Assembly (NCBI GenBank): GCA_045634345.1
Contig: JAZRAB010000183.1
Span: forward strand, 1-38,305
Reading direction: 5' to 3'
DNA length: 38,305 nucleotides
Source of the DNA: Candidatus Flemingiibacterium sp.
Lineage (GTDB): Bacteria; Bacillota; Clostridia; Oscillospirales; CAG-272
The notes beneath the pieces are model-generated. The model was not told the DNA's origin and did not search any database. It worked only from the letters and a program-made list of their open reading frames with translations. A program made the translations under genes and the position numbers. Positions within the stretch are counted from its first letter, which is position 1, and each line of letters begins with the position of its first letter. Shown here one piece after another: positions 3,866 through 35,278 of the stretch.

Positions 3866-5200
3866 ATGTTAAAAGCTGGAATGACAAGAGTTGATATCAC
3901 ACCTGAGCAGGGCATAGAGCTTGAAGGTTATCCTCACTATCCAAGATACAATACCGGTGCACACGATCCGCTGTATGCGGCTTGTATGTATCTTAATAAC
4001 GGCAAAGAAGAGATCGCAATGGTTACTCTTGACCTCTTGTTCTTCTCGAAGATATATGTTGCGGAAGTGCGCCGTAAAGTAGAAGAAAAGTGTGGTCTCA
4101 AGGGTGCTAACATCATGTTCAGTTGCTCACATACACACTCCGGTCCTGCGGCATCCGGCTTCATCGATGTTGAGGATCTTGAAAAGGGAAGAGAGCAGCC
4201 GATGGATTACATCAACAGTCTTATTGCAAAGCTTGTTGATATTATCGTTGAAGCAAAAACAAATGCATTTGACGGATATTTTGCTTACGGTACTGCTATC
4301 TGCGGTGCTGAATCGGGCGTTGGCGGAAATCGCCGTATGCCGGGCGGACCGCATGATCCGCTGGTAAGCGTTATGGCGGTAAAGGACACAAATGATGTCG
4401 TTCGCGGCGCACTTGTAAACTACACTCTCCATCCGACGTTTATTCACGAATGGAGCACTGTCTGTACAGCTGACTATCCTGCTTACCTCAAAATGCAGAT
4501 TGAAGAAGTATATCCGAATGCTCTTACCGGCTTCTCGCAGGGATGCTCTGGCAATCAGTCGAGCCGTTACTATCGTCAGGGCGAAAGCTATGATGAGGCA
4601 GAGCGCGTAGGACGCGCTATCGGTAAAGCGGCTAATACCGTTATCGCAAAGGCAAATTGGATGAACGACTTCGAGATTAAGACTGCGTCCAAGGAGATTG
4701 AGATCGATACTCGCAACTTCGGCACAGAGGAAGAGCTTGTTGCGCAGGTTGAAAGAGATACCGCAATTTATAAGGAGCTTTACGCAAAGTACGGTCAGTC
4801 CACTAACCGCGACGAATACTATCTCTGGCAGAATGCTAACCTCAAGTGCCTCGGCTCGGAAAATCAGCTCGGTTATGTACGTATTCAGAACAAGGGCATT
4901 AAGATCGAGATGCTCGAGGATGAAAATCCTGCTGAAATTCAGGTGTTCAACATTGGCGGAGTCGCTGTTGTCGGATTCCCGGGTGAGGCGTTCGTTGAGT
5001 ACGGCCTCTACATAAAGGCAATGGCAGGCTTCGGTATGGTCGTTGTAAACGAGCTTACCAACGGTGACCTTCCGGGCTATATGTACACACCAGAGTCTAT
5101 TGTTACCGGCGGTTACGAGACAGATACTTCCATGCTTGCCCCCGGATTCGGACGCAAGGTTGTTGATACTGTTCTTGAGGTCGCTGAGCTTGTAAAATAA
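3866..5200 (+). CDS. Hydrolase resembling the neutral/alkaline (non-lysosomal) ceramidase N-terminal domain family, paralogue 1
   Basis: 444 aa. Motifs seen: ITP..G..L.GYP, GAHDPLYA, CSHTHSGP and GGNRR.PGGPHDP. It is collinear with the next gene. The family call is from memory of PF04734-like proteins and is unverified. Confidence 0.55.
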   Translation: MLKAGMTRVDITPEQGIELEGYPHYPRYNTGAHDPLYAACMYLNNGKEEIAMVTLDLLFFSKIYVAEVRRKVEEKCGLKGANIMFSCSHTHSGPAASGFIDVEDLEKGREQPMDYINSLIAKLVDIIVEAKTNAFDGYFAYGTAICGAESGVGGNRRMPGGPHDPLVSVMAVKDTNDVVRGALVNYTLHPTFIHEWSTVCTADYPAYLKMQIEEVYPNALTGFSQGCSGNQSSRYYRQGESYDEAERVGRAIGKAANTVIAKANWMNDFEIKTASKEIEIDTRNFGTEEELVAQVERDTAIYKELYAKYGQSTNRDEYYLWQNANLKCLGSENQLGYVRIQNKGIKIEMLEDENPAEIQVFNIGGVAVVGFPGEAFVEYGLYIKAMAGFGMVVVNELTNGDLPGYMYTPESIVTGGYETDTSMLAPGFGRKVVDTVLEVAELVK

Positions 5201-5225
5201 ATTTAGTTAAAGAAAGGAAAACATT

Positions 5226-6560
5226 ATGCTTAAGACCGGATTTGCAAGAACAGATATAACACCTCCCCGGGGACTTTCGCTGATGGGATATCCGCACTAT
5301 GACAGATTTAATACCGGTGCACACGATCCGCTTTATGCGGCTTGTATGTATCTCGACAACGGTGAAAACGCCGTTGCTATGGTAACGCTTGACCTCCTTT
5401 ATTTCTCAAAGCCGTATGTAATGAAGGTTCGCAAGCTCGCCGAGGAAAAATGCGGTATCAACGGTGAAAATATTATGATCACCTGCACGCATACACATTC
5501 CGGTCCACGTGCATATAAAATGGTCGCTGACGATGATCCTGCAACTGCTGACCCGAAGCGTGATGCATATGTTGAGGATATTATCGTTAAGATAGCTGAC
5601 CTTGTTGCAGAGGCGAAGAATACCGCATTTGACGGAGAATTTGCGTACAATGTGGCACTTTGCGGCGCAGAGCAGGGTGTTGGCGGCAACCGCCGTGTAC
5701 CCGGTGGACCACACGATCCGCTTGTTTCCGTAATGGCTGTAAAGGACATGAAGGGCGATCTTCGCGGCGTGCTCGTGAACTATTCGCTTCATCCGACATT
5801 TATTCATGAGTGGGTAAACGAATGTACCGCGGACTATCCTGCGTATGTTAAGATGCAGGTTGAGGAAACTTATCCCACTGCACTTTCCGGATTCGGTCAG
5901 GGTGCATCGGGCAATCAGTCGAGTCGTTATTACCGTAAGGGTGAGAGCTTCGACGAGGCAGAGCGCGTAGGACGCGCTATCGGTAAGGCTGCCTGTGAAG
6001 CTATCGCAAAGATGAAGTGGCTCTCTGACATCGAAATCAAGACAGTATCCACCACAATGGAGATGGAGCTTCGTGATTTTGGTCCGATTGAGGAACTCGA
6101 AAAGCAGGTTGAGCATGATACTGCCGTGTACAAGGAGCTTTATGCAAAGTACGGCAAGTCGGAAAAGCGCGAGGAATACCTGCTTTGGCAAAATGCAAAC
6201 CTTAAGTGCCTCGGCTCGGAGAACAAACTTGCGTATGCACTGAAGATAAAGAACGGCGAAAAGCTTGACCGTCTTCAGGACGAAAGCCCGGTTGAGCTTC
6301 AAGCGTTCAATCTCGGCGGACTCTGCGTGATCGGCGTTCCCGGCGAGATGTTCGTGGAATATGCGCTTTATGTTAAAGCAATGGCAGGCTTTGGTATGGT
6401 TATTTTCAATGAAACAACTAACGGCTGCTTGCCCGGATATGTACATACTCCGGAGGCGCTTACTTTTGGTGGATATGAGACAGATACCTCTGTAATTGGG
6501 GAGAAATTCGGTCAGCATATAGTTAAAAAAATACTCGATACAGTCGAAAAAATAAAATAA
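5226..6560 (+). CDS. Ceramidase-like hydrolase, paralogue 2 (tandem duplicate of 3866-5200)
   Basis: 444 aa, gap-free alignment by eye with the preceding protein at roughly two-thirds identity. Same motifs (CTHTHSGP, GGNRRVPGGPHDP). Confidence 0.55.
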   Translation: MLKTGFARTDITPPRGLSLMGYPHYDRFNTGAHDPLYAACMYLDNGENAVAMVTLDLLYFSKPYVMKVRKLAEEKCGINGENIMITCTHTHSGPRAYKMVADDDPATADPKRDAYVEDIIVKIADLVAEAKNTAFDGEFAYNVALCGAEQGVGGNRRVPGGPHDPLVSVMAVKDMKGDLRGVLVNYSLHPTFIHEWVNECTADYPAYVKMQVEETYPTALSGFGQGASGNQSSRYYRKGESFDEAERVGRAIGKAACEAIAKMKWLSDIEIKTVSTTMEMELRDFGPIEELEKQVEHDTAVYKELYAKYGKSEKREEYLLWQNANLKCLGSENKLAYALKIKNGEKLDRLQDESPVELQAFNLGGLCVIGVPGEMFVEYALYVKAMAGFGMVIFNETTNGCLPGYVHTPEALTFGGYETDTSVIGEKFGQHIVKKILDTVEKIK

Positions 6561-6578: not shown

Positions 6579-7541
6579 ATGATTAACGGACCAGACAACT
6601 TCACATTTAAACCAGCAGATTTTTATCCTTTCAGGGATACTGAGGATATTGCTCGTGTTCGTGCAATTACCAAGGAAGACATTATCGCAATGAACGGCAA
6701 GCATCCCACTTCTCCTACAATGCAGATTCATCTGCCCCGTCCCGAGGAAATGGCGATCATAATGGTTGCCGATATTGTACAGCGTATCGTCGATTCGGAC
6801 AGATATGACAAGAAGTGTGTCATGATTATGCCGAACCCCAATACCGGTTATATTCAGGCGGCACACATTCTCAAAAAGCTGAAGGTGAATTGCCGCAATG
6901 TCAAGTTCTATATGATGGACGAGTGGGCAGACGAGGACGGCAATATAGCACCTCTCTCCTATAAGCAGGGCTTCGGTAATGCTTTCTACCGTTTCATGGT
7001 ATCGGAGATTCTCGAGCTCGGTTTCAAGGAAGAAAACTTTATCTATCACAGCAATAAGATTACCCCCGACTATTCGAAGATGCTCGAAGCTGACGGTGAG
7101 GCTGATATTGTTTACTCCGGTCCCGGATGGCCCGGTCATCTCGCATTTATTGATCCTGTTGAGGATTGGTATAAGCCTACCATGGAAGAGTATCTCGCGC
7201 AGGGCGCAAAGGTTGCAAGTCTCCATCCGCTTACTATCGCACAGAACTCCCTCCACGGCTCATTTGGTTGCTCCGGCGATATCGCAAAGGTTCCGCCGAA
7301 GGGGGCAATGATGGGTCCGAGAGACGCTATGAAGGCAAAAGAGGTTTACGACTTCCACGGAATCACTACCGCAGGTACCCATGTTACTTGGCAGAGACTG
7401 ACTTCTCGCCTCTGCATTTTCGGCAAGCCGAGCCAGGAAGTTCCCGCATCCATACTCCAACTCCGCGATAAGCCTACTCATGTATTCATGAGCGAGCAGA
7501 ATGCGGCTACAATTGAACCTGATTACTTCTTCCAGTATTGA
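6579..7541 (+). CDS. NagB/6-phosphogluconolactonase-superfamily sugar-phosphate isomerase/deaminase-like protein
   Basis: 320 aa. Segments align by eye to E. coli NagB: MMDEW (NMDEY), SGPGWPGHLAFIDP (GGVGNDGHIAFNEP) and PPKGAMMG (PKYALTVG). It carries a long N-terminal extension. Confidence 0.6.
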   Translation: MINGPDNFTFKPADFYPFRDTEDIARVRAITKEDIIAMNGKHPTSPTMQIHLPRPEEMAIIMVADIVQRIVDSDRYDKKCVMIMPNPNTGYIQAAHILKKLKVNCRNVKFYMMDEWADEDGNIAPLSYKQGFGNAFYRFMVSEILELGFKEENFIYHSNKITPDYSKMLEADGEADIVYSGPGWPGHLAFIDPVEDWYKPTMEEYLAQGAKVASLHPLTIAQNSLHGSFGCSGDIAKVPPKGAMMGPRDAMKAKEVYDFHGITTAGTHVTWQRLTSRLCIFGKPSQEVPASILQLRDKPTHVFMSEQNAATIEPDYFFQY

Positions 7542-7564
7542 TTTTGTGGAGAAAGGTTGCATAT

Positions 7565-8497
7565 ATGATTTCATGTACGGAATTTATACCTGCTTATAGC
7601 GAGCTTTTTACTTACCTTGAGGACAATTACGGCAGAGCCGAGGTTGATCGCTTCTGGAAGTATCTTTTTGAGCCGACGGGCAACGGGATTCCACTTATCA
7701 ATTTCGTGAAAAAGGAAGGTATCCGAGGCTGCTTCTCATATTGGTCAGGAACCCTCACCGAGGAAGCCTCGGACTGCACTATTTATCTTAACGAAAAAGC
7801 CGGCTGGTTCATGAATGTTATGTATAAATGTCCCTCGAAGGGAAGACTCCTTAAATTGAAAGATGAGATCGGAATTGAACCGTATCACGACTACTGTCTG
7901 CACTGTGACTGCTATCGCGCGGCAATAGAACAGGTAGGACTTAAGTACATGTACAATTTCCAAGGCGTCGATCATGCTGCTTGCTCACTCATTATATACG
8001 ATCCAAAGGTTTTCGACGGACGCATAATAATCGATGAGAATACGGAAAAGCTCGAGGTGCGTGCTTCGGAGAACGAGTACTTCCACCGCGATTTCCACAG
8101 CAGCATGAATATGGGTATTCATTACCTCGGTGAAAATTACGGTCTTACGGTGGTTGAGGATTATCTTGCACGCTATACCAAAAACGTGTACAGAAAAGAG
8201 ATTGCGGATATCGAAAAGGGCGGCATTGATGCTATTGCGGATAAGATATGCGATACCTACGAAAAAGAAAAATCTCCCGACGCAGTAGAGCTTGTGCGTG
8301 ACGGTGCAAGGCTTACCGTCAATGTGAAGTATTGCCCGGCAGTAAAGCATCTGAAAGCAACCGGACGAGTTGTTTCGCCGTGGTATCGTTATACTACAGA
8401 AGTTGTGATGGAAACTCTCGCAAAAGCGGCGGGGGCAAGCTTTAAAATGCTGTCTTACGACGAAGAGAACGGTGCGGCTTGCTACACTTTTGAGTGA
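7565..8497 (+). CDS. Uncharacterised Cys-motif protein, paralogue 1 (two-module; possible ATC-hydrolase/V4R-like fold)
   Basis: 310 aa counted from ATG 7565. An aaagg RBS-like element precedes it and the start context is identical to that of its paralogue, so the track's upstream start at 7538 is rejected. Conserved KCPSKG...YC.HCD...AAC signature in the N-terminal half, and YCP...AACYTFE in the C-terminal half. Confidence 0.6.
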   Translation: MISCTEFIPAYSELFTYLEDNYGRAEVDRFWKYLFEPTGNGIPLINFVKKEGIRGCFSYWSGTLTEEASDCTIYLNEKAGWFMNVMYKCPSKGRLLKLKDEIGIEPYHDYCLHCDCYRAAIEQVGLKYMYNFQGVDHAACSLIIYDPKVFDGRIIIDENTEKLEVRASENEYFHRDFHSSMNMGIHYLGENYGLTVVEDYLARYTKNVYRKEIADIEKGGIDAIADKICDTYEKEKSPDAVELVRDGARLTVNVKYCPAVKHLKATGRVVSPWYRYTTEVVMETLAKAAGASFKMLSYDEENGAACYTFE

Positions 8498-8553
8498 GCG
8501 ATTTTGTAATGTTATTATTTGTAAAAGTGATTTGTTGAAAAGAGGTTGTATAT

Positions 8554-9486
8554 ATGATTTCATGTACGGAATATATTCCTGCATACAGTGAGTTTTTTAC
8601 CTATCTTGATGAAACCTACGGTAAAGAGGAGTTAGACCGTTTCTGGGAGTATCACTTTGCACCTACGGGTAAGGGTATACGTCTCATCAATTTCCTTAAG
8701 GCAGAGGGGCTAAAGGGCTGTTATACTTACTGGTCTGCCGCACTCAAAGAGGAGGCTGCGGACGTTACCATCTATTTGAACGAAAAAGCAGGATGGTTTA
8801 TGACTGATATGCACAAATGCCCTTCAAAAGGTAAATTGCTTAAGTTGAAGGATGAGTTTGGTTTTGTGCCTTATCACAGTTACTGTATGCACTGCGACGG
8901 CTATCGCGCCGCTGTGGAGCAGGTCGGACTTAAATATATGTACGATTTTGTCGGCTGTGACCGCGCAGCATGCCGTCTTATCATTTACGACCCTAAGGTG
9001 TTCAATGAACGGGTAATCGTTGACGAAAACACAAAGATACTCGACATCCGAGCCTCCGAGAACGAATACTATCATCTTGATTTTCACCGCAGCATGAACA
9101 GCGTAATCAATTATGTCGGCGAAAATCACGGTATTTCGGCGGTCGAGGATTATCTCGGACGTTACACAAGAAATGTTTGTTTGAAACAGATGACCGATAT
9201 CGAAACTCGCGGTATCGATGCGATTGCCGACAAGATACGTGATACATATGAGAAGGAAAAATCTCCCGACGCAGTAGAGCTTGTGCGCGATGGCGGAAAG
9301 CTTACCGTCAATGTGAAGTATTGCCCGGGTGTTAAGTATCTTAAGGATACGGGACGTATTGTTTCACCGTGGTATCGCTATACTACAGAAGTTGTGATGA
9401 AGGCTCTTTCTGAAAAAGCCGGTGTAAGCTTTAAAATGCTGTCTTACGACGAGGAAACAGGTGCGGCTTGCTACACTTTCGAATAA
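8554..9486 (+). CDS. Uncharacterised Cys-motif protein, paralogue 2 (tandem duplicate of 7565-8497)
   Basis: 310 aa, collinear with the previous protein at roughly 70 percent identity by eye. It shares the MISCTE start and the Cys pattern. Confidence 0.6.
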   Translation: MISCTEYIPAYSEFFTYLDETYGKEELDRFWEYHFAPTGKGIRLINFLKAEGLKGCYTYWSAALKEEAADVTIYLNEKAGWFMTDMHKCPSKGKLLKLKDEFGFVPYHSYCMHCDGYRAAVEQVGLKYMYDFVGCDRAACRLIIYDPKVFNERVIVDENTKILDIRASENEYYHLDFHRSMNSVINYVGENHGISAVEDYLGRYTRNVCLKQMTDIETRGIDAIADKIRDTYEKEKSPDAVELVRDGGKLTVNVKYCPGVKYLKDTGRIVSPWYRYTTEVVMKALSEKAGVSFKMLSYDEETGAACYTFE

Positions 9487-11176: not shown

Positions 11177-11983
11177 ATGGCTTTTCTTGAAGTACGAAAC
11201 TTAAAAAAGCATTTCGGAAACACTTCCGTCCTTCACGGTATCGACTTTTCAATGGAAAAAGGCGAGGTCGTGGCAATAATCGGCTCATCGGGCGGTGGAA
11301 AAACTACATTCCTTCGCTGTCTCAATTTTCTTGAAATGGCAAACGAAGGCACAATCGATATTGATGGCGGCTTTCATTTCGATGCCAATGCCGCATACAG
11401 TAATGCCGAGATTCGTGCAATGCGCTTGAAGATGGGATTGGTATTTCAGTCGTTCAATCTTTTTCCGCAGTATACGGCGCTTGAGAATGTTTATCTGCCG
11501 CTTCAACTGCGTACCAAAGAGAAGATACGCGGTGAACTTCCATTCGGACGAGCAAGACGCAATGCGTATATCGAAGCTCAGAAGGAAAATCAAGATATTG
11601 CCAAGAGTATTCTCACAGAGGTGGGGCTTGGCGATAAAATGGGCAACTATCCTTGTCAGCTTTCTGGTGGACAACAGCAGAGAGTTGCTATTGCACGCGC
11701 GCTTGCACAAGAGCCGGCGATACTTTGCTTCGACGAGCCGACCAGTGCGCTTGACCCCGAGCTTACGGACGAGGTTTTGCGTGTCATCAAAGAGCTTAAG
11801 GACCGCGGACGCACCATGCTCGTGGTTACTCATGAGATGGAGTTTGCGCGAAATGTTGCCGATAGAGTAGTCTTTTTTGCAGACGGACTTATCGAGGAAG
11901 AGGGCGCACCCGCCGATATCTTCACAAATCCGAAATCCGAAAAGACTGCGGCATTCCTGCATCACGGCGCAGGGAATATATAA
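11177..11983 (+). CDS. Amino-acid ABC transporter ATP-binding protein
   Basis: 268 aa. Walker [10 protein letters not shown], signature [15 protein letters not shown], Walker [13 protein letters not shown] and H-loop VVTHEM. It has an extra segment of about 18 aa between the Q-loop region and the signature motif, relative to E. coli GlnQ as I recall it. Confidence 0.85.
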
Positions 11984-12014
11984 TTGCATATTACCTTCTA
12001 ACAGGATTCCAACG

Positions 12015-12049
12015 AAAAAACGCACTCATTTTTTATGAGCGCGTTTTTT
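12015..12049 (+). terminator. Rho-independent terminator of the ABC operon
   Basis: aaaaaacgcactcat / atgagcgcgtttttt hairpin with flanking A and T runs. Confidence 0.7.
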
Positions 12050-12055
12050 CGTGTA

Positions 12056-12369
12056 TAAATTATTGTTTATCGGGGAGTTTTATGCTTCGATTATTGCAGC
12101 TCCCAAGCGACGCTATGCGCCGCCTACCGTATTGCTCGCGGCGGCAATGCCACCGCTCGGGAGGGGGAGCCACTGCTCTCAAACGCCGATGCGTGCTCCC
12201 CCTCCACCCCCTCAAGCCTCGGCTTAGCCGAGTCAAGGAAGGGAGTGCAGAGGGGAACCTATGGATCGGCGTTTGAGAGCAATTGGTTCCCCTCTGCATA
12301 TCGGCAGGCGGTGCAGCGCACCGCAAGGAGCATCGTTGTTCGGAGCGCCCCCTATAAACTCAAATTTAC
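12056..12369. repeat. GC-rich nested-palindromic mosaic repeat, copy 1 (arm A - core - arm B')
   Basis: The left arm (12056-12130) matches the reverse complement of the right arm of copy 2 and of copy 3. The right arm (12299-12369) matches the reverse complement of the left arm of copy 2. The core (12131-12298) is nearly identical to the copy 2 core in direct orientation. Confidence 0.85.
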
Positions 12370-12418
12370 AATTAACTTCACAAGCTTCCGATATTTCGCT
12401 GAAAATATCGAAAACATA

Positions 12419-12447
12419 TTGCCTCATGAATAAAAAGATGCTATAAT
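12419..12447 (+). promoter_or_regulatory. Promoter for the MFS/GDPD genes
   Basis: TTGCCT (12419-12424), 17-nt spacer, TGcTATAAT (extended -10; TATAAT at 12442-12447). Confidence 0.55.
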
Positions 12448-12486
12448 ATTGTAAACTATGTAAAACACAAAGGATGGTATCTTGCA

Positions 12487-13869
12487 ATGAAACTGAATTA
12501 TAAACGCACTGTTCTTGTCGGCTTTGCATTTTTCCTTATCTGCACTTTCTGGCAGGCGTATGACACCGTGATCCCGAAAATTCTTACCGATAAATTTGGT
12601 ATGTCGCAGAGTCTTTCGGGTGCGGTTATGGCACTTGATAATGTTCTCGCAGTTATACTTCTGCCTATCTTTGGCGCAATATCCGACAGACACAATGGAA
12701 AGCGCGGAAGACGCACGCCATTTGTCCTTGTCGGTACCGTTCTTGCCGCTATAGCATTTGTCGGACTCTCATTTGTGGATAACGTGCAGCTTGCCGCTAT
12801 TGAGAAGGGGGTTGCCGAAATCGGTCTTGAGGCGACTGAAGCGCGTCTTGCGTATGCTTGGGAGATGACATGCAGTAATCCCGTGATCCTTATATTTTTT
12901 ATGTTGATGCTTCTAGTTGTGCTTCTCTCAATGGCGATATTCCGTTCTCCGGCGGTTGCGCTTATGCCTGACGTTACACCTAAACCGCTTCGCTCAAAGG
13001 GCAATGCTGTAATCAACCTGATGGGCGCTGTGGGCGGAATCCTTGTGCTTGCCCTCGGTATCATCTTTGGCACGGGCAAGCCGGAAAATACATTTATGAG
13101 CTATACGCCATTCTTCGCGGTTATTGCGGCGGTGATGCTTGGTGCGCTTGCTATATTCTCGCTTACGGTCAAAGAAAAGAAATGGGCGGCGGAGGCTGAT
13201 GCTGTAAATGATAAGATGGATGACTCCGAAGACATACGCAGTGTAACCCAAGAAAAACGCTCGCTTACTAAGGGGGAGCTTAAATCCCTGCTTTTCATTT
13301 TGGCATCTGTGGTGCTTTGGTATATGGGCTATAACGCGGTTTCAAGTAAATACTCGGTCTATGCGGGAGAGGTGTTAAAGCTTGATTATAATCTCACTCT
13401 TATGGTGGCTCAGGCAGCGGCAATCGTATCGTATATTCCCGTTGGTATCATTTCGCAGAAATTTGGGCGTCGTAAAACTATTTTGGCTGGTGTTGCCATG
13501 CTTGGCATTGCTTTCGGTTGTGCGTACTTCATGGGCGAGGGAAGCAATATCTGGGTGATGAACGCACTGTTTGCTCTTGCAGGAATCGGTTGGGCGACGA
13601 TCAATGTGAATAGTTATCCCATGGCCGTTGAACTTGCAAGCTCGGGCGATACCGGCAAATATACGGGATACTACTACACTGCATCTATGGCGGCACAAAC
13701 CGTTACGCCGATACTTTCGGGATTCTTCATGGACATAAATCTTAAAACTCTTTTCCCGTATGCAACTATATTTGTAGCACTTGCGTTTGTGACTATGCTT
13801 TTTGTTCGCCATGGCGATATTAAAACAGATTCCAAAAAGGATCTGCTCGAGCATTTTGATGTGGAGTAA
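12487..13869 (+). CDS. MFS transporter (GPH/SLC45-like)
   Basis: 460 aa with about 12 predicted TM segments. SDRHNGKRGRRTPF loop motif after TM2 and a long charged central loop. Confidence 0.75.
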   Translation: MKLNYKRTVLVGFAFFLICTFWQAYDTVIPKILTDKFGMSQSLSGAVMALDNVLAVILLPIFGAISDRHNGKRGRRTPFVLVGTVLAAIAFVGLSFVDNVQLAAIEKGVAEIGLEATEARLAYAWEMTCSNPVILIFFMLMLLVVLLSMAIFRSPAVALMPDVTPKPLRSKGNAVINLMGAVGGILVLALGIIFGTGKPENTFMSYTPFFAVIAAVMLGALAIFSLTVKEKKWAAEADAVNDKMDDSEDIRSVTQEKRSLTKGELKSLLFILASVVLWYMGYNAVSSKYSVYAGEVLKLDYNLTLMVAQAAAIVSYIPVGIISQKFGRRKTILAGVAMLGIAFGCAYFMGEGSNIWVMNALFALAGIGWATINVNSYPMAVELASSGDTGKYTGYYYTASMAAQTVTPILSGFFMDINLKTLFPYATIFVALAFVTMLFVRHGDIKTDSKKDLLEHFDVE

Positions 13870-13873
13870 TAAA

Positions 13874-14677
13874 ATGGCGATTATAATAATATCTATTGTA
13901 CTGCTTGCAGGACTCTATATGTTTGTGTTGATACGTCCGAGATTACATGCTCGCCATGATAAACAGCTCGACACCGACTATGCGCATCGGGGACTCCACC
14001 GCAGAGGAGTGCCGGAAAATTCACTTGCGGCATTTGAGCGTGCTGTGGTACACGGCTATGGAATTGAGCTTGATGTTCAGCTTTCACGCGACGGAGAGGT
14101 CATGGTATTTCATGATTATACTCTTGAGAGAATGACCGGCAGGGAAGGACGGCTCTGCGATTTTTGCGCGGATGAGCTTTCATCAATGCGCCTTGCCGAT
14201 ACAGATGAAACCATACCGCAGCTTCGTGATGTGCTAGGACTTGTAAATGGGCGTGTTCCACTTCTTATTGAATTGAAAGGCGAAAGCGCCGATGTTTCGC
14301 TTTGTGAGCCGCTTTCTCGTCTGCTTGGGGAATATGATGGAGCTTTTTGCATAGAATCCTTCAATCCGATACTGCTTGGAGAGATGGCGAAGTGTATGCC
14401 GCAGGTCTATCGCGGCATACTGTATACCAACCTTTGCCGCGATAAAAAGAAATATTCGCTTCTCAATATCGCGCTTACCGGTATGGTTACCAATATTATT
14501 GCACGCCCTGATTTTATTGCATATAATGAAAAATACCGGGGCTCTATGTTGTTATGGCTTATTACGCATTTGTACCGTCCAAACAAATATTGCTGGACAG
14601 TAAAAAGCAAAGCGGATTACGATATTGCAAAGAGAAATGAGGAATTTGTTATTTTTGAGAATTTCAAACCCGAATAG
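13874..14677 (+). CDS. Membrane-anchored glycerophosphodiester phosphodiesterase family protein
   Basis: Start moved to ATG 13874 (ggag RBS 7 nt upstream), which avoids overlap with the MFS gene. N-terminal TM helix, then the GDPD motifs AHRGL..PENSL.AF and GIELDVQLSRDGEVMVFHD. Confidence 0.75.
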   Translation: MAIIIISIVLLAGLYMFVLIRPRLHARHDKQLDTDYAHRGLHRRGVPENSLAAFERAVVHGYGIELDVQLSRDGEVMVFHDYTLERMTGREGRLCDFCADELSSMRLADTDETIPQLRDVLGLVNGRVPLLIELKGESADVSLCEPLSRLLGEYDGAFCIESFNPILLGEMAKCMPQVYRGILYTNLCRDKKKYSLLNIALTGMVTNIIARPDFIAYNEKYRGSMLLWLITHLYRPNKYCWTVKSKADYDIAKRNEEFVIFENFKPE

Positions 14678-14855
14678 TATTGTTCAAGGTTATGAGCACG
14701 GTAAAAATGAGAAAGCATTGTCGTATTCAACAAACTTTGAGCGAGCTTTTTGTGGAGTTTGCCTGAGGGCGAAAGCGATTTGTGAAAATGCAATGAAATG
14801 TGCTATTAAATACGGTTTTGAGGAGCATTTGCTTGTATACTTTTAAGGCGAATTT

Positions 14856-14864
14856 TGCTATAAT
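14856..14864 (+). promoter_or_regulatory. Extended -10 element (TGcTATAAT) upstream of the surface protein gene
   Basis: tgctataat at 14856-14864. No good -35 at 17 nt, so this is an extended -10 type only. Confidence 0.4.
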
Positions 14865-14878
14865 TACAATGTAATGAA

Positions 14879-14908
14879 GGGAATATTCTGCGGCCGCAGA
14901 ATATTTCC
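14879..14908 (+). other. 5'-leader hairpin centred on GCGGCCGC
   Basis: 24-nt perfect palindrome aatattctgcggccgcagaatatt (14882-14905), plus two flanking G-C pairs and one G-T wobble. Confidence 0.5.
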
Positions 14909-14973
14909 TAATATCAGATTCGAGCGTATTCGTTCGAACTCTAATAAAATTTTTTTCGAAAGGACGAAAAATT

Positions 14974-16119
14974 ATGAAGAAATTTCTTGCATTCGCTATT
15001 GCGGCATTAATGATGGTTTCCTGCTTCGCAGTAACCACTGTTGCTGCAGATGGTGCTCTTAAGATGGGTACCGCAACAGTTGACGGTATTCTCGACGATG
15101 TCTACACCGGTTCCGTTATGATCAAGGAGGCAGGTAAGGATGCTTCTCAGAACCAGCTTCCCTCCGAGTGGAACGGTTCCTGCTACGCAGATATTTATCT
15201 CATGTATGACAACGAGTATCTTTACATTTTTGCACATGTAACAGACGATGATGTTCTTTCAAGAGGAAGAGCATATGCTATCGGCACCGTAAACCCTAAC
15301 GACAATGATGTAATTGAGTTCAGACTCGTTTTCAACGGCGTTGATGACGACCAGTTCAAGGTATCTGTTGATGCTTTCGGTTATCAGCTTTTCGGTCTTC
15401 CGTGGCACTATGACATCATAGACTACAGCACCTTCGAATATGCAGTAAAGACTGATGATGTTGCAGGTACATATGATGTTGAGGTTGCGATCCCCTGTAC
15501 CAAGGGTACTCTTGACCTTATAAAGTACGGTACACTTGGCTTTGCATTCCAGATCAACGATATAGACTACAACGGCAGAACCACTCAGTTCTCGCTCTAC
15601 AGCTCCAATGCGGCTAACGTATGGACCAGTGCTAAGTACAGCCTTTCCGGTGAAAAAGCTGTTGCCGGTTCCGGTAGCACAGTAAGCGCAGGTCCTATCG
15701 AAGGTACCCTCGCAGCTCCCGAGACCACCGCAGCTCCTGAAACTTCTGCAGCTCCCGAGACTACTGTAGCACCCGAGACCACCGCGGCTCCTGAAACTAC
15801 TGCGGCTCCCGACACCACTGCTGAGGTTGAAGATACTACTGCAGAGGCAGAGGATACCCCTGCTGAGGTTGAAGACACCACTGCAGAGGCAGAGGATACC
15901 ACTGCTGACGTTGAAGACACCACTGCAGAAGCAGAGGATACCACTGTAGAGGACGACAAAGACACCGACGCTGATACAACTGAAGCTCCGAACACTACCG
16001 CAGCTACAGGCACTGACGATGAGGGTGGAATCAATCCTATCGCAATCGTTGGAATCGCAGCAGCAGTTATTGTAATTGCAGCAGTTGCAGTTATCCTTGC
16101 AAAGAAAAAGAAGAACTAA
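14974..16119 (+). CDS. Secreted, membrane-anchored surface protein with a CBM9/DOMON-like domain and a Thr/Glu/Ala/Pro-rich repeat stalk
   Basis: 381 aa. It has a signal peptide, a DGILDDVY...YLMYDNEYLYIFAHVTDDDV...FAFQINDID pattern typical of CBM9-like domains, tandem repeats, and a C-terminal TM helix plus KKKKN stop-transfer. Confidence 0.65.
   Translation: MKKFLAFAIAALMMVSCFAVTTVAADGALKMGTATVDGILDDVYTGSVMIKEAGKDASQNQLPSEWNGSCYADIYLMYDNEYLYIFAHVTDDDVLSRGRAYAIGTVNPNDNDVIEFRLVFNGVDDDQFKVSVDAFGYQLFGLPWHYDIIDYSTFEYAVKTDDVAGTYDVEVAIPCTKGTLDLIKYGTLGFAFQINDIDYNGRTTQFSLYSSNAANVWTSAKYSLSGEKAVAGSGSTVSAGPIEGTLAAPETTAAPETSAAPETTVAPETTAAPETTAAPDTTAEVEDTTAEAEDTPAEVEDTTAEAEDTTADVEDTTAEAEDTTVEDDKDTDADTTEAPNTTAATGTDDEGGINPIAIVGIAAAVIVIAAVAVILAKKKKN
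15712..15945 (+). repeat. In-frame tandem repeats: 6 x 18 nt (AAPETT) followed by 6 x 21 nt (AE[VA]EDTT)
   Basis: Read directly: 15712-15819 encodes AAPETT-like units and 15820-15945 encodes AEVEDTT/AEAEDTT-like units. Confidence 0.9.
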
Positions 16120-16131
16120 TCTTCTGTAAAT

Positions 16132-16163
16132 AAAAAAGTGCTTGCGGCCGCAAGCACTTTTTT
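16132..16163 (+). terminator. Rho-independent terminator of the surface protein gene
   Basis: aaaaaagtgcttgcggccgcaagcactttttt is a perfect palindrome with A and T runs, so it is bidirectional in form. Confidence 0.8.
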
Positions 16164-16194
16164 ATGGCGCTAGCCATTGGAATGGCACGTGCTA

Positions 16195-16637
16195 TAAATT
16201 TGAGTTTATATAGGAGTTTGCGCTTCGAGCGTTGGTGCTCCTTGCGGTGCGTTGCACCGCCTGCCGTACTGCTCGCGGCGGCTTTGCCCCCTCTCGGGAG
16301 GGGGGCCACTGCTCTCAAACGCCGATGCGTGCTCCCCCTCCACCCCCACAAGCCTCGGCTGCTCGACAACCTGAAATTATAGATATAACCTATATTTTAG
16401 AAGCCGAGTTAGCCGAGCCAAGGAGGGGAGTGCAGAGGGGAACCTATGGATCGGTGTTAGCAGGTCACGACGTGACCTGCGTGTAAGTTCGGCAAAGTCC
16501 AACTTTATAGCAAGTCGGCGAAGCCGTCTTGCTTGAGAGACAATTGGTTCCCCTCTGCAAATACGGCAGGCGGCGAAAACGCCGCTTGGGAGTTACGACA
16601 ATCGAAACATTAAACTCCCCTACAAACAATAATTTAC
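16195..16637. repeat. GC-rich nested-palindromic mosaic repeat, copy 2 (arm B - core with two insertions - arm A')
   Basis: Arms are swapped relative to copy 1 while the core is in the same orientation. There are two extra segments (about 16351-16402 and about 16466-16531) that are absent from copy 1. Confidence 0.85.
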
Positions 16638-16666
16638 AAAAAGCAAAGCAGATAACGGCAATACTG

Positions 16667-17551
16667 TTATCTGCTTTGCTTTCTAAATTGATTAGGCGTG
16701 ATTCCTACATGCTTTAAGAACATGGACTCAAACCCTTGTCTTGTCTCATATCCGCATTGATCGGCGATCTCGTCAATTGACATGTCGCTTAATTGCAGAT
16801 ACTGCTTTGCGGCACTTATGCGTATTTCACGCAGCTTTTCGGTGAATGTCATGGCAAAACACTTGTCGAGTATGCGGCGCATTTGCGTGCGGCTGTATGA
16901 AAAATATTCGGCAAGGGAATTGAGGGTTATCTGCTGTGAATAATTAAGATAAAAATAGCTTTCAATCTTAGCGTATAGGTTGATTTTTGGAATTTCTTCG
17001 GGAATCTGTCGGCTGTCTAATACATTGATGCGTTCGAGAATGTAGCTGATTATGATTCCGAACTGTGCCTTAATACGGTATTTCTCAAGGCGTGACGGGG
17101 CAGTATGCTGGAAATTACGCAGACTTTCAATAAGATGGAATATCATTGACTTTTCCTCATCATTGAGCGCGTAATGCATGTATGGGGGAAGAGACTCTGT
17201 TAAATCCTTGTCCTCTGCTGCCATATTGAATCGCATGCCAAATCTTCGTATGTCGCTTGAGTACGAGAGGAGACGATGCTTTGTATGCGGCTTTATTAGA
17301 AGAACCTCGCCTGATTTGACGGTACAGCTTTCATTGCCGATAAGTACTTCGAATGATCCGTCTTCGACTATCAAAATTTCATTTGCGGCATGATCGTGAT
17401 ATGTGAGGGAGGGGGTAAGATGAGTTTGCGTTTGATCTATCTCATAGTCTATCAGTATGTCTACGGTTACATCTTCACAGACAACGGTGACGGAGGTAGG
17501 GATTTCCAATGTATCTATGTAGTCTTTTTCAATTGATTTTGTATGCGGCAT
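16667..17551 (-). CDS. AraC-family transcriptional regulator (N-terminal cupin sensor, C-terminal HTH)
   Basis: 294 aa. C-terminal region (LNSLAEYFSYSRTQMRRILDK...IDEIADQCGYETRQGFESMFLKHVGITPNQFR) is a typical AraC double HTH. The N-terminal half is cupin-like. A hairpin at 16643-16680 overlaps the stop codon. Confidence 0.85.
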   Translation of the reverse strand: MPHTKSIEKDYIDTLEIPTSVTVVCEDVTVDILIDYEIDQTQTHLTPSLTYHDHAANEILIVEDGSFEVLIGNESCTVKSGEVLLIKPHTKHRLLSYSSDIRRFGMRFNMAAEDKDLTESLPPYMHYALNDEEKSMIFHLIESLRNFQHTAPSRLEKYRIKAQFGIIISYILERINVLDSRQIPEEIPKINLYAKIESYFYLNYSQQITLNSLAEYFSYSRTQMRRILDKCFAMTFTEKLREIRISAAKQYLQLSDMSIDEIADQCGYETRQGFESMFLKHVGITPNQFRKQSR

Positions 17552-17674
17552 AGTATCCCTCCATCATGAAGTAATAAATACATAATACCATAACAATGTT
17601 ACGGATTGGTTAACAAAAGAACAGGAAAAAGTGAATTAGTTGATTATGCAAATATATTATTTTTCTGTTTAGGA

Positions 17675-17703
17675 TTGACAAATTAGCAACTGTATGGTAT
17701 AAT
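17675..17703 (+). promoter_or_regulatory. Strong sigma-70-type promoter for gene 17802-19139
   Basis: TTGACA (17675-17680), 17-nt spacer, TGgTATAAT (TATAAT at 17698-17703). Confidence 0.65.
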
Positions 17704-17801
17704 TATAAATAAGTATATATAATTGTGCGTAGAGTTGGCTTTTTTAGTGCTTTTAATACGACTACATATTATTTTCTACACAAACCGAGGAGAACATAAT
17801 C

Positions 17802-19139
17802 ATGAAAAAGTTCAAGTTAGCCAAGGGTGTACCCGCGGTATTAATAACACTTTTGGTTGTTGCTTCACTGCTGGTGCTCTCGATATTTGCCGGAAATGCA
17901 TTCATAGGCTTCCGTAGTAACACGGGCGCTGCAACCGGCGATGATACTGACGCTGTTACTCCGTACATTCCGGAAAAACGTACATACGAGCGTCCGGAAG
18001 AAACGTACGAGGGCGTGCAGGGCATAGTCCTTCGTTCAGCTGCATCTGCGGTTGATACATCCATACTTGCAGGCACGCAGGTTACCGACTACATGATAAT
18101 AGCAGACAGCACCGACCCATCCTCGGCAATCAGCGCACTTACTAATGTCGGCATCAGCGCATGGATGTCTGTCGGACTCACTGATATAAACGACGAAATG
18201 CTTGTTACGATAGAAGATGTTATTTCCGCTAATGACATCTACGGTATCGAAATCGACTTCTGCGGTATGCCGTGCATCCCGGGCGAGCCGAATTCCGATC
18301 TTGATGATATCAATGCTTTTGTCGCCGATGTGTCTGAGCTTGTTGAAGTGTATGAAGAGTACCATGAGCATGATATCAAGCTTTCTGCAAAGGTTTATTC
18401 TGATATCGATACCTGCTATGGATACGGCTTGGACGTTTCCAACTGGGTGGCAAACAAGCTTGTCGATATGATAAGCCCCTCATCAGGCTCTGAATATGCA
18501 AATACCGATTTGTTTTTGAGAATGTGGGCATCGCTTGTTGATCCAAACGGAGTCGTGCTTGCTCCCTATATTGGCGGACAGATTAAGAACTATGAGTCCT
18601 CAACTGCAGTTACCGCTCAAACTGCCGCTACACTTGCAGGTGAAGCAGCCGTTGCCATTACGCATGGCGCGGATAAGGTATGCCTTGTTGATTATATCAA
18701 TAAGGACTTGCTTAATGTTTTAGGCTCGTATGACACTGTTATGGCAGCTGACCGTATACATCGTCTTACCTATAATTCAGCGAGACAGCCATGGACTCCT
18801 GCCTATAATCACCTGCCTAAGAGTTTTAAGTCGGGATCAAGTATGGCGATTCGTATCCCGATCGGAAATATCCTTGATGGCGCTACTGTCAAGGTTCGTA
18901 TAGTATATGATCAAAAATATAACTTCTTAGCACTTCCGTCGGCCAATGTATATTTGAATTCTAATGCGTGTGCTAACGCAAAAACGGTTGGCGGTAGCTG
19001 GACTTCCGATTATGATACATTTGAATACGATGCGCCTGCAGCAGTATACGATGATGGATATATCGTATTTGAGCTTTTCCCGATGTCATCAAGCGCAACC
19101 TATACGCTTAAGGACATTCAGGTTATAGTAACACCGTAA
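17802..19139 (+). CDS. Secreted or membrane-anchored hypothetical protein (possible TIM-barrel glycoside-hydrolase-like core plus C-terminal beta-sandwich)
   Basis: 445 aa. N-terminal signal anchor (VPAVLITLLVVASLLVLSIFAG) and RBS gaggag. No motif that I can assign with confidence. Confidence 0.45.
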   Translation: MKKFKLAKGVPAVLITLLVVASLLVLSIFAGNAFIGFRSNTGAATGDDTDAVTPYIPEKRTYERPEETYEGVQGIVLRSAASAVDTSILAGTQVTDYMIIADSTDPSSAISALTNVGISAWMSVGLTDINDEMLVTIEDVISANDIYGIEIDFCGMPCIPGEPNSDLDDINAFVADVSELVEVYEEYHEHDIKLSAKVYSDIDTCYGYGLDVSNWVANKLVDMISPSSGSEYANTDLFLRMWASLVDPNGVVLAPYIGGQIKNYESSTAVTAQTAATLAGEAAVAITHGADKVCLVDYINKDLLNVLGSYDTVMAADRIHRLTYNSARQPWTPAYNHLPKSFKSGSSMAIRIPIGNILDGATVKVRIVYDQKYNFLALPSANVYLNSNACANAKTVGGSWTSDYDTFEYDAPAAVYDDGYIVFELFPMSSSATYTLKDIQVIVTP

Positions 19140-19154
19140 TAAAAATACAGATAA

Positions 19155-19186
19155 AGATACCGTCCCGAATAGGACGGTATCTTTTC
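19155..19186 (+). terminator. Rho-independent terminator of 17802-19139
   Basis: agataccgtcc / ggacggtatct 11-bp stem, 6-nt loop, then tttt. Confidence 0.8.
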
Positions 19187-19203
19187 TATATATGGCAAAA
19201 ATA

Positions 19204-20436: not shown

Positions 20437-20506
20437 AATTTTTAATACTCCTTTAGCATGATTTATAAGCTTGATGATTGATTCATCTAAATCATACCAA
20501 TTATAT

Positions 20507-20535
20507 ATTATACCACACTATATTGTTTTTTTCAA
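20507..20535 (-). promoter_or_regulatory. Promoter of the CofE-like gene
   Basis: Minus strand: TTGAAA (20530-20535), 17-nt spacer, TGgTATAAT (TATAAT at 20507-20512). Confidence 0.6.
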
Positions 20536-20735
20536 TATTTTTTAAGAAATTTTTCGATAAAGATATTATAAAAATTTTGTCTGCATGCAAAGCTGTTTTG
20601 GGTATTTTGTGCGAGCGTAAAATTGTATAGATGTCGGAGTTGTTATATTGTCGATATCCGGGGATTGCGGTGCGGTATTTTTTTGATAAATCTGCAAAAA
20701 AATGTCAGTTATGAGTGGAAAATCGAAAATTACTA

Positions 20736-25381: not shown

Positions 25382-25409
25382 AAAGCCTCCAAACGGATGT
25401 TCTTTAAAT

Positions 25410-25438
25410 ATTATATCACAAAAAAATATGTTTGTAAA
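25410..25438 (-). promoter_or_regulatory. Promoter of the SLOG gene
   Basis: Minus strand: TTTACA (25433-25438), 17-nt spacer, TGaTATAAT (TATAAT at 25410-25415). Confidence 0.65.
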
Positions 25439-25457
25439 TAGGTTTTATGAAAAAATT

Positions 25458-26967: not shown

Positions 26968-28197
26968 TTATTTAATATCCATCACAGTGCCGATAAAGAA
27001 GGGAAGCGCGGTTTCGGTATCAATGAGCATGAATACAAACGGACGGTCGAGGATTACCGTTTTGGTATCGGGGGACTCCATAGATGCGCCATCCTTCATT
27101 TCGATAACGGTTGCGGCACCTGCTTTTGTTCCGCGCTCGCCTACTGAAATGTAGGTCTTGTGGAGCACACGGCTGATGAAGATATTTCCGGCAGCAGAGC
27201 TTCCGAGAGATGAAAAATCAGCAAGCTCTGGATTAAAGGCATCCGTCATTCCCATACTTGCAAGCACCCCTGCAAGCTCTGTATCAAATTCAAACTCGAA
27301 TTTGGGAATACCTGCGTTTACAGGTGCATTTGTAGGATTTTCGAGCATTGAGTGGAGCGATTCACCGCTGAGAGATACAATGTAGTCCCCAACGCTTGTG
27401 CCCTCATTCGGCAGAAGAGCTGCAAAGGCATATTTTCTGTCTTTATAATATTTGATAAAACCGGATGCATTTTCATCTCCGATGTATTCATATTCATCGG
27501 AATACATCATTTTTACATTGCGTTCGTTTCCGCCTTCTGTCGTAAAGATGGTGTCATGTACCTGATTCTTTTTGTATATACTTTGCCATTCCGCTTCAAA
27601 GGCAAGCGCATTTACAAGATACATCACTGCATCTGATGGAATATTATCGAGAATTTGTGGGATCATCCCGTCGGTTTTTTCTTTAACCCAACTGTTGATT
27701 CTGTTTTTTGTGATTGGATTAAACGGCGTTTTGAATATATCCGCGCCGTAGTAATCGGCGTTTGTCTGGAGAAAATCATCGTTTACGGTGAAGCGCTCAT
27801 CGTCTGTAAACCAAATAGAGTTTGCAAGATTAAGCTTGTATTTTTCATCTTTCGGCAGCACATCTGTATAAGCCTTTAAGCAAGAATTGAGTGAGTCCAC
27901 ATCGAGTCCGAACATTGCTTCCATTTGAGCGAGTGTGTCTCCCTCGGCGCCGTTGACAACCATGGCAAGTGCGGAGAGTACGGACAACGGAGAGATAAGA
28001 GTGTTTTTGCCGTCAGTGTACGATTCTGTGAGCAAACGCACACCGAAATCGGTAATCTCATTACCGACATCTTTTATATCAGTAGTTATAATATTGTCGC
28101 TTGGCGTGATACCCGATGAAATATTGGCAGTACTTACTGTGCCGCATGAAGTAAGAATAAGTGAGACAAGAATGAATAGGGAAGCGATTCGTTTCAT
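26968..28197 (-). CDS. Serpin-family protease inhibitor, lipoprotein
   Basis: Start set at MKRIASLF (28197), with aaaggag RBS 7 nt upstream. Lipobox LTSCG, SPLSVLSALAMVVNGAEGDT serpin N-terminal motif, and hinge/RCL ERGTKAGAATVIEMKDGASM followed by LDRPFVFMLID. Confidence 0.85.
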   Translation of the reverse strand: MKRIASLFILVSLILTSCGTVSTANISSGITPSDNIITTDIKDVGNEITDFGVRLLTESYTDGKNTLISPLSVLSALAMVVNGAEGDTLAQMEAMFGLDVDSLNSCLKAYTDVLPKDEKYKLNLANSIWFTDDERFTVNDDFLQTNADYYGADIFKTPFNPITKNRINSWVKEKTDGMIPQILDNIPSDAVMYLVNALAFEAEWQSIYKKNQVHDTIFTTEGGNERNVKMMYSDEYEYIGDENASGFIKYYKDRKYAFAALLPNEGTSVGDYIVSLSGESLHSMLENPTNAPVNAGIPKFEFEFDTELAGVLASMGMTDAFNPELADFSSLGSSAAGNIFISRVLHKTYISVGERGTKAGAATVIEMKDGASMESPDTKTVILDRPFVFMLIDTETALPFFIGTVMDIK

Positions 28198-28271
28198 AAG
28201 CGTTCTCCTTTTAGCGTAGAAAATCTTCTGCATATTTGACGTAATAAATTAAAAAAAGTTCCCTGACATGC

Positions 28272-35032: not shown

Positions 35033-35072
35033 CGCCGTCGCTCCTTTCACACGATTTTATATATAATACAAT

Positions 35073-35101
35073 ATTATACCACAATTTACTGATTATTTCA
35101 A
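35073..35101 (-). promoter_or_regulatory. Promoter of the cls-flippase operon
   Basis: Minus strand: TTGAAA (35096-35101), 17-nt spacer, TGgTATAAT (TATAAT at 35073-35078). Confidence 0.65.
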
Positions 35102-35134
35102 GATATATAAAGCAACGATTGGCAAAAATATTTC

Positions 35135-35278
35135 GGATTTAAGTTTGTCGGGGAGTTTGCGCTCCGAGCTTTGATGCTCCTTGCGGTGCCTCCCCTTGCA
35201 ACCCGGCAGGCGGCGCAACGCGCCGCTTTGGAGCTGCAATAATCGAAGCGATAAACTTCACGATAAATAATAATTTAC
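35135..35278. repeat. Minimal copy (arm B-like - 13-nt spacer - arm A') of the mosaic repeat family, lacking the core
   Basis: The right part (35203-35278) matches arm A' of copy 2 and the reverse complement of arm A of copy 1. The left part contains gcgctccgag...gatgctccttgcggtgc, as in arm B. It ends 4 nt from the stop codon of gene 35283-36074. Confidence 0.8.

Follow-up and report, generated by a model that had tools for sequence, protein, structure and literature searches.

Three related hairpin-forming intergenic repeats in a Clostridia contig, and their candidate origin as a MITE-type mobile element

Genes of the window and position of the repeats

The window analysed here, 38,305 bp long, is an entire contig of a metagenome-assembled genome from NCBI. 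Its closest proteins are annotated as Clostridia, Ruminococcaceae or Oscillospiraceae, and the related contigs with which it was compared apparently come from ruminant digestive-tract metagenome sets, judging by their names alone. The genes of the window are ordinary chromosomal ones: they encode a sugar kinase, an amidohydrolase, ceramidase-like paralogues, an amino-acid ABC transporter, an MFS transporter, a GDPD, a CBM9 surface protein, an AraC regulator, an F420-ligase-like protein, SAICAR synthase, GH2, a serpin, FakA/DegV, cardiolipin synthase and PEPCK, together with one tRNA-Arg. No transposase, recombinase or Y1 protein (Y1_Tnp domain) is encoded among the window's proteins, which agrees with the original prediction that the enzyme mobilising the repeats described below lies elsewhere.

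Several features of these genes deserve mention in their own right. Tandem paralogues occupy 3866-6560 and 6579-9486, and the copy number of both sets varies among three of the related loci, L013-L015. Between the two ceramidase-like genes, DNA identity is about 71%; among three adjacent genes of about 310-320 aa, the second and third are 72% identical over 300 nt, and the first and third have no match in Pfam. The GDPD ORF (13802-14677) starts at a TTG and has a 68-nt overlap with the MFS gene; in relatives, the annotated start of the GDPD (267-272 aa) is close to the end of the MFS gene, the extremes being L013, in which it immediately follows the stop codon, and L016, in which it is 11 nt inside, so that the real start in the window is probably further downstream than the TTG. 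In the gene of the CBM9-domain protein (14974-16119), tandem repeats of 18, 21 and 42 nt occupy 15696-16018 and, read from the DNA, specify an apparent Thr/Ala/Pro/Glu-rich linker followed by a seemingly hydrophobic C-terminal segment. The serpin gene (26968-28233, minus strand; Pfam Serpin, E 2.5e-85) is full-length; serpins are uncommon in bacteria. Finally, an AT-rich motif, ATATTATACCACA, occurs three times (20505-20549, 25408-25452 and 35071-35115). On the opposite strand it reads TGTGGTATAATAT, an extended -10 promoter; the copy upstream of the cardiolipin synthase gene is conserved in L026.

Three GC-rich, hairpin-forming repeats lie between these genes: el1 (12056-12369, 314 nt), el2 (16195-16637, 443 nt) and el3 (35135-35278, 144 nt). 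Repeat finding in the window links the three by direct and inverted repeats, each element being bounded by two arms of about 55-75 nt. When the window was searched with a profile of the arms (nhmmer), exactly six matches were obtained, which are the six arms (E 9e-13 to 8.5e-22), the next-best match having an E-value of about 0.9. The three elements with inverted arms that had been proposed at these positions are thereby recovered in full. Their GC content (0.576, 0.537 and 0.521 for el1, el2 and el3) stands against 0.457 for the window and 0.21-0.45 for the surrounding intergenic DNA.

The elements are non-coding. The ORFs that can be drawn inside them have no homologues among 5.8 billion clustered proteins or 1.84 billion cluster representatives; the sole match of an 88-aa ORF in the latter set is an unrelated tandem-repeat protein, and a chimeric six-frame query gave no protein match at E <= 1e-3. 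These ORFs are therefore artefacts, as had been supposed from their palindromic sequence.

All three elements adjoin gene ends. el1 starts 6 nt past the T-run of the intrinsic terminator of the amino-acid ABC transporter operon (12016-12049, plus strand), and is located upstream of the MFS promoter (TTGCCT-17-TGnTATAAT). el2 is lodged between two convergent terminators: the perfect palindromic bidirectional one that follows the CBM9 gene (16130-16165), at 30 nt, and the hairpin of the AraC-family gene (16640-16682, minus strand), at 3 nt; the latter has a stem of 17 bp that overlaps the gene's stop codon. Only 4 nt separate el3 from the stop codon of the minus-strand gene at 35283-36074, and el3 is located upstream of the cardiolipin-synthase promoter; there is no other terminator after that stop codon, and on the gene's strand el3 is followed after 11 nt by a T-run. 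The original prediction placed all copies just beyond terminators or stop codons, and these distances bear it out. The arm designated A below adjoins the nearest gene end in all three elements, one case being ambiguous, which is not significant.

Anatomy of the arms and of the core

All arms are built on the same plan: an AT-rich terminus of about 17 nt is followed by a composite hairpin (hairpin 1, GGGAG...CTCCC), then by a GC hairpin of 6-7 bp (hairpin 2) and by a box, CCGCCTGCCG. With at most one mismatch, this box occurs nine times in the window, for 1.5 occurrences expected, and five of the nine are inside arms. The arms fall into two types, with consensus TAAATTATTGTTTATCGGGGAGTTT.ATGCTTCGATTATTGCAGCTCCCAAGCGGCGC-nnn-GCGCCGCCTGCCG for type A and TAAATTTGAGTTTATAGGGGAGTTTGCGCTCCGAGCnTTGATGCTCCTTGCGGTGC-GYT-GCACCGCCTGCCG for type B. 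Arms of the same type are 78-87% identical, A and B arms 47-73%, and the differences between the types are fixed. The two arms of each copy are one of type A and one of type B, inverted with respect to each other and alignable over about 70 nt starting at the extreme termini, in keeping with the imperfect inverted repeats of that length described initially. An ancestor with two different ends, common to all the copies, would be expected to leave one arm of each type in every element, as observed. The terminal sequence TA+AATT... is found at five of the six element ends. It is compatible with insertion at a TA target, although, TA being self-complementary, a terminal TA cannot be separated from the inverted repeat as a signal of target duplication.

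el1 is organized as A arm, core and reverse-complemented B arm. Arm A1 (12056-12129, plus strand; nhmmer E 2.3e-21) begins with the AT-rich terminus TAAATTATTGTTTATC, continues with hairpin 1 and has an imperfect hairpin 2, GCGACGC-TAT-GCGCCGC, with one A-C mismatch in the stem, followed by a variant box, CCGCCTACCG. Arm B1 (12302-12369, minus strand; E 8.7e-17) has the hairpin 2 GCGGTGC-GCT-GCACCGC and the box CCGCCTGCCG, and is devoid of the AGTTT block after GGGG. Between them, the core (12130-12301, plus strand) is an asymmetric nested palindrome consisting of a hairpin block present on the left only, a long stem (12161-12190 with 12265-12294) and an apex hairpin, CTCGGC-TTA-GCCGAG.

el2 has the order B arm, core, reverse-complemented A arm, with two extra internal blocks that are not in el1. 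Arm B2 (16195-16266, plus strand; E 2.4e-19) forms two local hairpins (z -2.9), and arm A2 (16564-16637, minus strand; E 2.6e-19, z -3.9) has the hairpin 2 GCGGCG-TTTT-CGCCGC. The first extra block (16361-16408, plus strand), AT-rich and about 48 nt long, is inside the apex hairpin of the core. The second (16459-16533, plus strand; 75 nt) comprises three small hairpins and interrupts the right strand of the core stem, between ATCGGTGTT and TGAGAG; it has no partner in the left half, no duplication of the flanking bases and no second copy in the window.

el3 consists of a truncated B arm, a remnant of the right end of the core and a reverse-complemented A arm. Arm A3 (35204-35278, minus strand; E 8.5e-22) has the hairpin 2 GCGGCGC-GTT-GCGCCGC and the box CCGCCTGCCG. 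The terminus of arm B3 (35135-35189, plus strand; E 9.4e-13) is degenerate, with GGATTTAAG in place of TAAATTTGAG, and the arm is cut after GCGGTGC. A GC hairpin followed by a box had been attributed to every arm. This is true of most of them, but not of A1, in which both are altered, nor of B3, which has lost the box. Since B3 ends after the 5' half of hairpin 2 and is there joined to the 14-15 nt retained from the right end of the core (CTCCCCTTGCAACC, to be compared with TTCCCCTCTGCAAATA in el2), el3 is an internal-deletion derivative of an el2-type copy rather than the minimal unit that its 144 nt had suggested. Size variants with common ends, here of 144, 314 and 443 nt, are typical of decaying MITE families.

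The cores of el1 and el2, about 170 nt long, align in the same orientation with 161 matches, 10 mismatches and 6 gap columns. The arms are exchanged around them: el1 reads A-core-B' and el2 reads B-core-A', the orientation of the core being unchanged. Two isomers of the element therefore exist, as inversion of the core through recombination, or through template switching, between the two inverted arms would lead one to expect. The cores are also more alike (about 94% identity over aligned bases) than the arms (about 86%), which could reflect gene conversion between el1 and el2, 4 kb apart, or a constraint on the core.

Whole elements fold as long imperfect hairpins (el1, -170 kcal/mol, z -10.1; el3, z -4.65). 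The original prediction read the maintenance of hairpin stems as a mark of selection on structure, a reading that the comparison of arms weakens. The sole clear compensated pair, in hairpin 2, is C-G for type A but T-A for type B; all copies share this distinction between the end types, which makes it one event. This change keeps hairpin 2 while introducing mismatches into the long stem, so that the local hairpin seems to outweigh the arm-to-arm stem; it mildly favours the possibility that the local hairpin is what is recognized. As for the long stem, the duplex energies of arms from the same element (-38.9, -40.3 and -34.3 kcal/mol) are no better than those of arms from different elements (-33.1 to -47.6 kcal/mol), and thus provide no evidence for ongoing selection on it.

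Related loci and public collections

Syntenic loci were fetched via homologues of the MFS, ABC ATPase, F420-ligase-like and cardiolipin synthase proteins, at 80-97% protein identity. Searched with the arm profile and the core sequences, these loci (212.6 kb, partly redundant) contain zero copies of the element, and four of them were found to have no comparable long inverted repeat. The further copies that the original prediction looked for in relatives, and whose absence it had named as a refutation, are thus missing from these loci, so that the family either spread within the lineage of the window or is limited to it.

The sites themselves can be compared. At the position of el1, no element is present in L013, L017 or L018. 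In L013 and L018, the ABC-operon terminator and the MFS promoter are kept, and 41-43 nt of unrelated sequence stand where the window has el1 plus 25 nt; the gap in L017 is shorter. At the el2 site, neither L013 nor L014 has a comparable element: L013 keeps the CBM9 terminator and then has a different neighbour, and L014 runs directly into the F420-ligase-like gene. At the el3 site, L026 is without an element and has a 94-nt gap with a conserved cls promoter. Being absent from the comparable sites of relatives, the elements behave as insertions or deletions. The polymorphism is seen between species, and the element-free sites of L013, L018 and L026 are too diverged for base-by-base alignment. 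L013, L014 and L015 have the same ABC-MFS-GDPD-CBM9 order with no element, which indicates that the MFS-GDPD-CBM9 arrangement is ancestral here and that the elements came later.

The el2 site also coincides with a synteny break, examined by comparing 16638-19200 of the window with 13880-13982 of L014 and 13687-13746 of L013. The AraC-family gene (16667-17551, minus strand) is missing there in L014, and likewise a 445-aa gene with no Pfam match (17802-19139). In L019-L023, an AraC gene and a 473-aa gene are present, and MFS and GDPD are missing. The sole near-conspecific contig found, L016 (Logan, SRR28221512; MFS protein 97% identical), has only 70 nt ahead of the MFS start and would need about 48 nt more to reach the expected end of el1. 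This could be an assembly break at the repeat, or chance.

Wider searches yielded no relative of the elements. The arm pattern CTCCN{2,3}GCGGYGCNNNGCRCCGCCTGCCG, which fits three of the six window arms (A3, B1 and B2), gave six matches in 185,579 species-representative genomes and six in 241 million JGI metagenome records. These matches are in DNA of 63-74% GC and are alike over the pattern only, which identifies them as due to chance; the same three-arm pattern gave 0 matches in the IMG/VR viral contigs. BLAST against plasmids and phages returned nothing beyond chance matches of 25-33 nt, and in 5,426 complete E. coli genomes blastn found nothing similar to el1 at E <= 0.01. In Rfam, only one tRNA of the window passes the gathering threshold; at permissive settings over 11950-16750, all matches are far below gathering thresholds and none is credible, so that no Rfam family matches the elements. 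Searches of the literature on MITE or REPIN in Ruminococcaceae, Firmicutes and Clostridia found nothing relevant.

Origin of the elements

The explanation that I favour, at about even chances, is that el1, el2 and el3 are copies of the same MITE-type mobile element, which would be non-autonomous and restricted to its lineage. The element is a non-coding DNA of about 0.15-0.45 kb, with imperfect terminal inverted repeats of about 75 nt, A and B, around an asymmetric palindromic core. Its copies would have arisen from a common ancestor by transposition, the transposase being supplied in trans from elsewhere in the genome; an enzyme of the DDE type acting on the terminal inverted repeats, with TA as a possible insertion target, would be the favoured candidate. 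They would have landed in the short non-essential stretch just past terminators or stop codons, where they may or may not affect transcription, and later decayed by point mutation, by internal deletion (el3) and by gain or loss of internal blocks (el2), recombination or template switching between the inverted arms accounting for the flipped core of el1 relative to el2.

The copies have several of the features that characterize MITEs: they are short (below about 600 bp) and non-coding, all three have terminal inverted repeats, and they are present or absent at orthologous sites between species (L013, L014, L017, L018 and L026). They share much with the Correia/NEMIS elements of Neisseria and the RUP elements of Streptococcus pneumoniae, which are likewise small, non-coding, intergenic MITEs with terminal inverted repeats and a hairpin fold, possibly flanked by TA, with internal-deletion size variants and a variable presence among relatives; these too are often near gene ends, from where they can affect transcripts. 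On the other hand, the Correia arms measure about 26 nt, whereas those described here reach about 75 nt and contain two local hairpins each, and the large asymmetric palindromic core found in both orientations, the lack of similarity to any searched collection and the lack of a known parent insertion sequence also set the present elements apart from Correia/NEMIS and RUP. For a MITE of the DDE type, 75-nt terminal inverted repeats that contain hairpins are long. Only three copies, all within these 38 kb, were moreover available for comparison, with zero in the 213 kb from relatives or, for the pattern fitting three of the six arms, in public collections, and no parent insertion sequence or transposase was seen in the window or in plasmid, phage and viral collections.

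The main rival to the MITE reading is a REPIN-like element moved as single-stranded DNA by an HUH/Y1 transposase (RAYT or a TnpA of the IS200/IS605 type), which would read the GC hairpin and the box, the two arms standing for two REPs. IS200/IS605 elements are common in Clostridia. Like the REP, REPIN and BIME sequences of E. coli and Pseudomonas, the elements are extragenic mosaics of modules at the 3' ends of transcription units, all copies adjoining terminator hairpins or gene ends, in which two inverted units, each with a 6-7-bp GC hairpin beside a conserved box, are contained in a larger hairpin, as the two inverted REPs of a REPIN are. The double change that leaves hairpin 2 perfectly paired at the expense of the long stem also goes in this direction, but it represents a single event. 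A REP is a palindrome of 20-40 nt preceded by GTAG, whereas the 75-nt arms are two to three times longer and have no conserved GTAG (it is found in A2 only) or other fixed tetranucleotide 5' of hairpin 2. The similarity between arms reaches the extreme termini, making them true terminal inverted repeats, which are usually missing from HUH-mobilised elements. The PATEs, derived from IS200/IS605 insertion sequences, of which the host class here carries many, are similarly non-autonomous, with subterminal hairpins that a Y1 transposase could read, but their ends are not inverted repeats of each other, while here the ends align over about 70 nt. Neither a RAYT nor any other Y1_Tnp protein is in view in the window, the loci of relatives and the public collections that were searched yielded no copies, the Y/Z REPs and linker motifs that define an E. 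coli BIME have no counterpart by blastn of el1, and the host belongs to the Clostridia rather than to the Proteobacteria. Of the family proposed initially, of REPIN/BIME or MITE kind, the nested-palindromic, non-coding repeat family thus stands and the membership of REP, BIME or REPIN is not supported, and mobilisation of the REPIN kind seems unlikely. A bolder version, in which uncultured Clostridia would possess a hairpin-recognising single-strand DNA transposition system comparable to REPIN-RAYT, with long two-hairpin arms, insertion directed beside terminator hairpins, a core flipping between isomers and the acceptance of further hairpin modules, is a long shot; if true, the element would be a modular, self-nesting structured-DNA parasite or symbiont and not a plain DDE-type MITE.

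The elements could also be structures selected by the host, as RNA or as cruciform DNA, serving as insulators, terminators or mRNA-stabilising hairpins and spread or maintained by recombination. Their extremely stable folds, the situation of every copy between a 3' end and the next promoter, that of el3 directly after a stop codon with no other terminator and with a T-run 11 nt beyond the element, and the better conservation of the el1 and el2 cores relative to the arms are all in line with such a role. Canonical terminators nevertheless precede el1 and el2; that of the ABC operon is conserved in L013 and L018, both without el1, and that of the CBM9 gene in L013, which means that el1 and el2 are not needed for termination. 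Relatives of the same gene order lack the elements, no Rfam family matches, the long stem has no element-specific compensation and large internal deletions and insertions are tolerated, all of which makes host selection quite improbable. It might also be imagined that a composite mobile unit or island carrying MFS, GDPD and CBM9 (12056-16637) is bounded by el1 and el2, or that site-specific recombination uses the elements as sites or left them as scars: in the el1-el2 block, the two outermost arms are both of type A, inverted and 84% complementary over 57 nt, and el2 is at the synteny break, where the AraC and 445-aa genes are absent in L014 and the neighbour is different in L013. However, the ABC-MFS-GDPD-CBM9 order without any element in L013, L014 and L015, the isolated position of el3 and the lack of a recombinase nearby render this very improbable, and a composite transposon with MFS-GDPD-CBM9 was rejected for the first of these reasons. 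As to chance similarity or an assembly artefact, the contig does come from a metagenome-assembled genome, in which chimeric joins can create palindromes; yet the arm E-values go down to 1e-21, the copies have diverged from one another by 13-22% and so are not collapsed reads, and both flanks of each copy are collinear with the independent assemblies of relatives. This last explanation is extremely unlikely.

Some other known systems were considered and set aside. The termini GTTTATC and TATAAAC have pyrimidines where an integron attC site (RYYYAAC...GTTRRRY) needs purines; besides, the neighbours are multi-gene housekeeping operons and the window has no integrase. A Tn3-type 38-bp inverted repeat starting from GGGG does not fit an arm similarity that runs 16 nt further out. 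There is no intron RNA match for a class C group II intron inserted after terminators, and a retron, a CRISPR or a tRNA-derived element has nothing in Rfam and no associated genes to recommend it.

To return to the MITE reading, the most likely nature of the elements is that of small parasitic mobile DNA, ordinary in kind but belonging to a previously undescribed family. They open no long-standing question, a specialist of mobile DNA would not be surprised by them, and their interest is modest unless the full genome shows an unusual mobilising enzyme. In practical terms, such repeats break assemblies and yield spurious ORFs, mark recent lineage-specific change and can be used as strain markers. 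The placement beside terminators and the existence of two core isomers make them a small test case of how long palindromes are tolerated, flipped and trimmed in chromosomes. If confirmed genome-wide, they would constitute a new family of palindromic repeats from a lineage of uncultured ruminant-gut Clostridia, organisms in which such repeats have hardly been catalogued.
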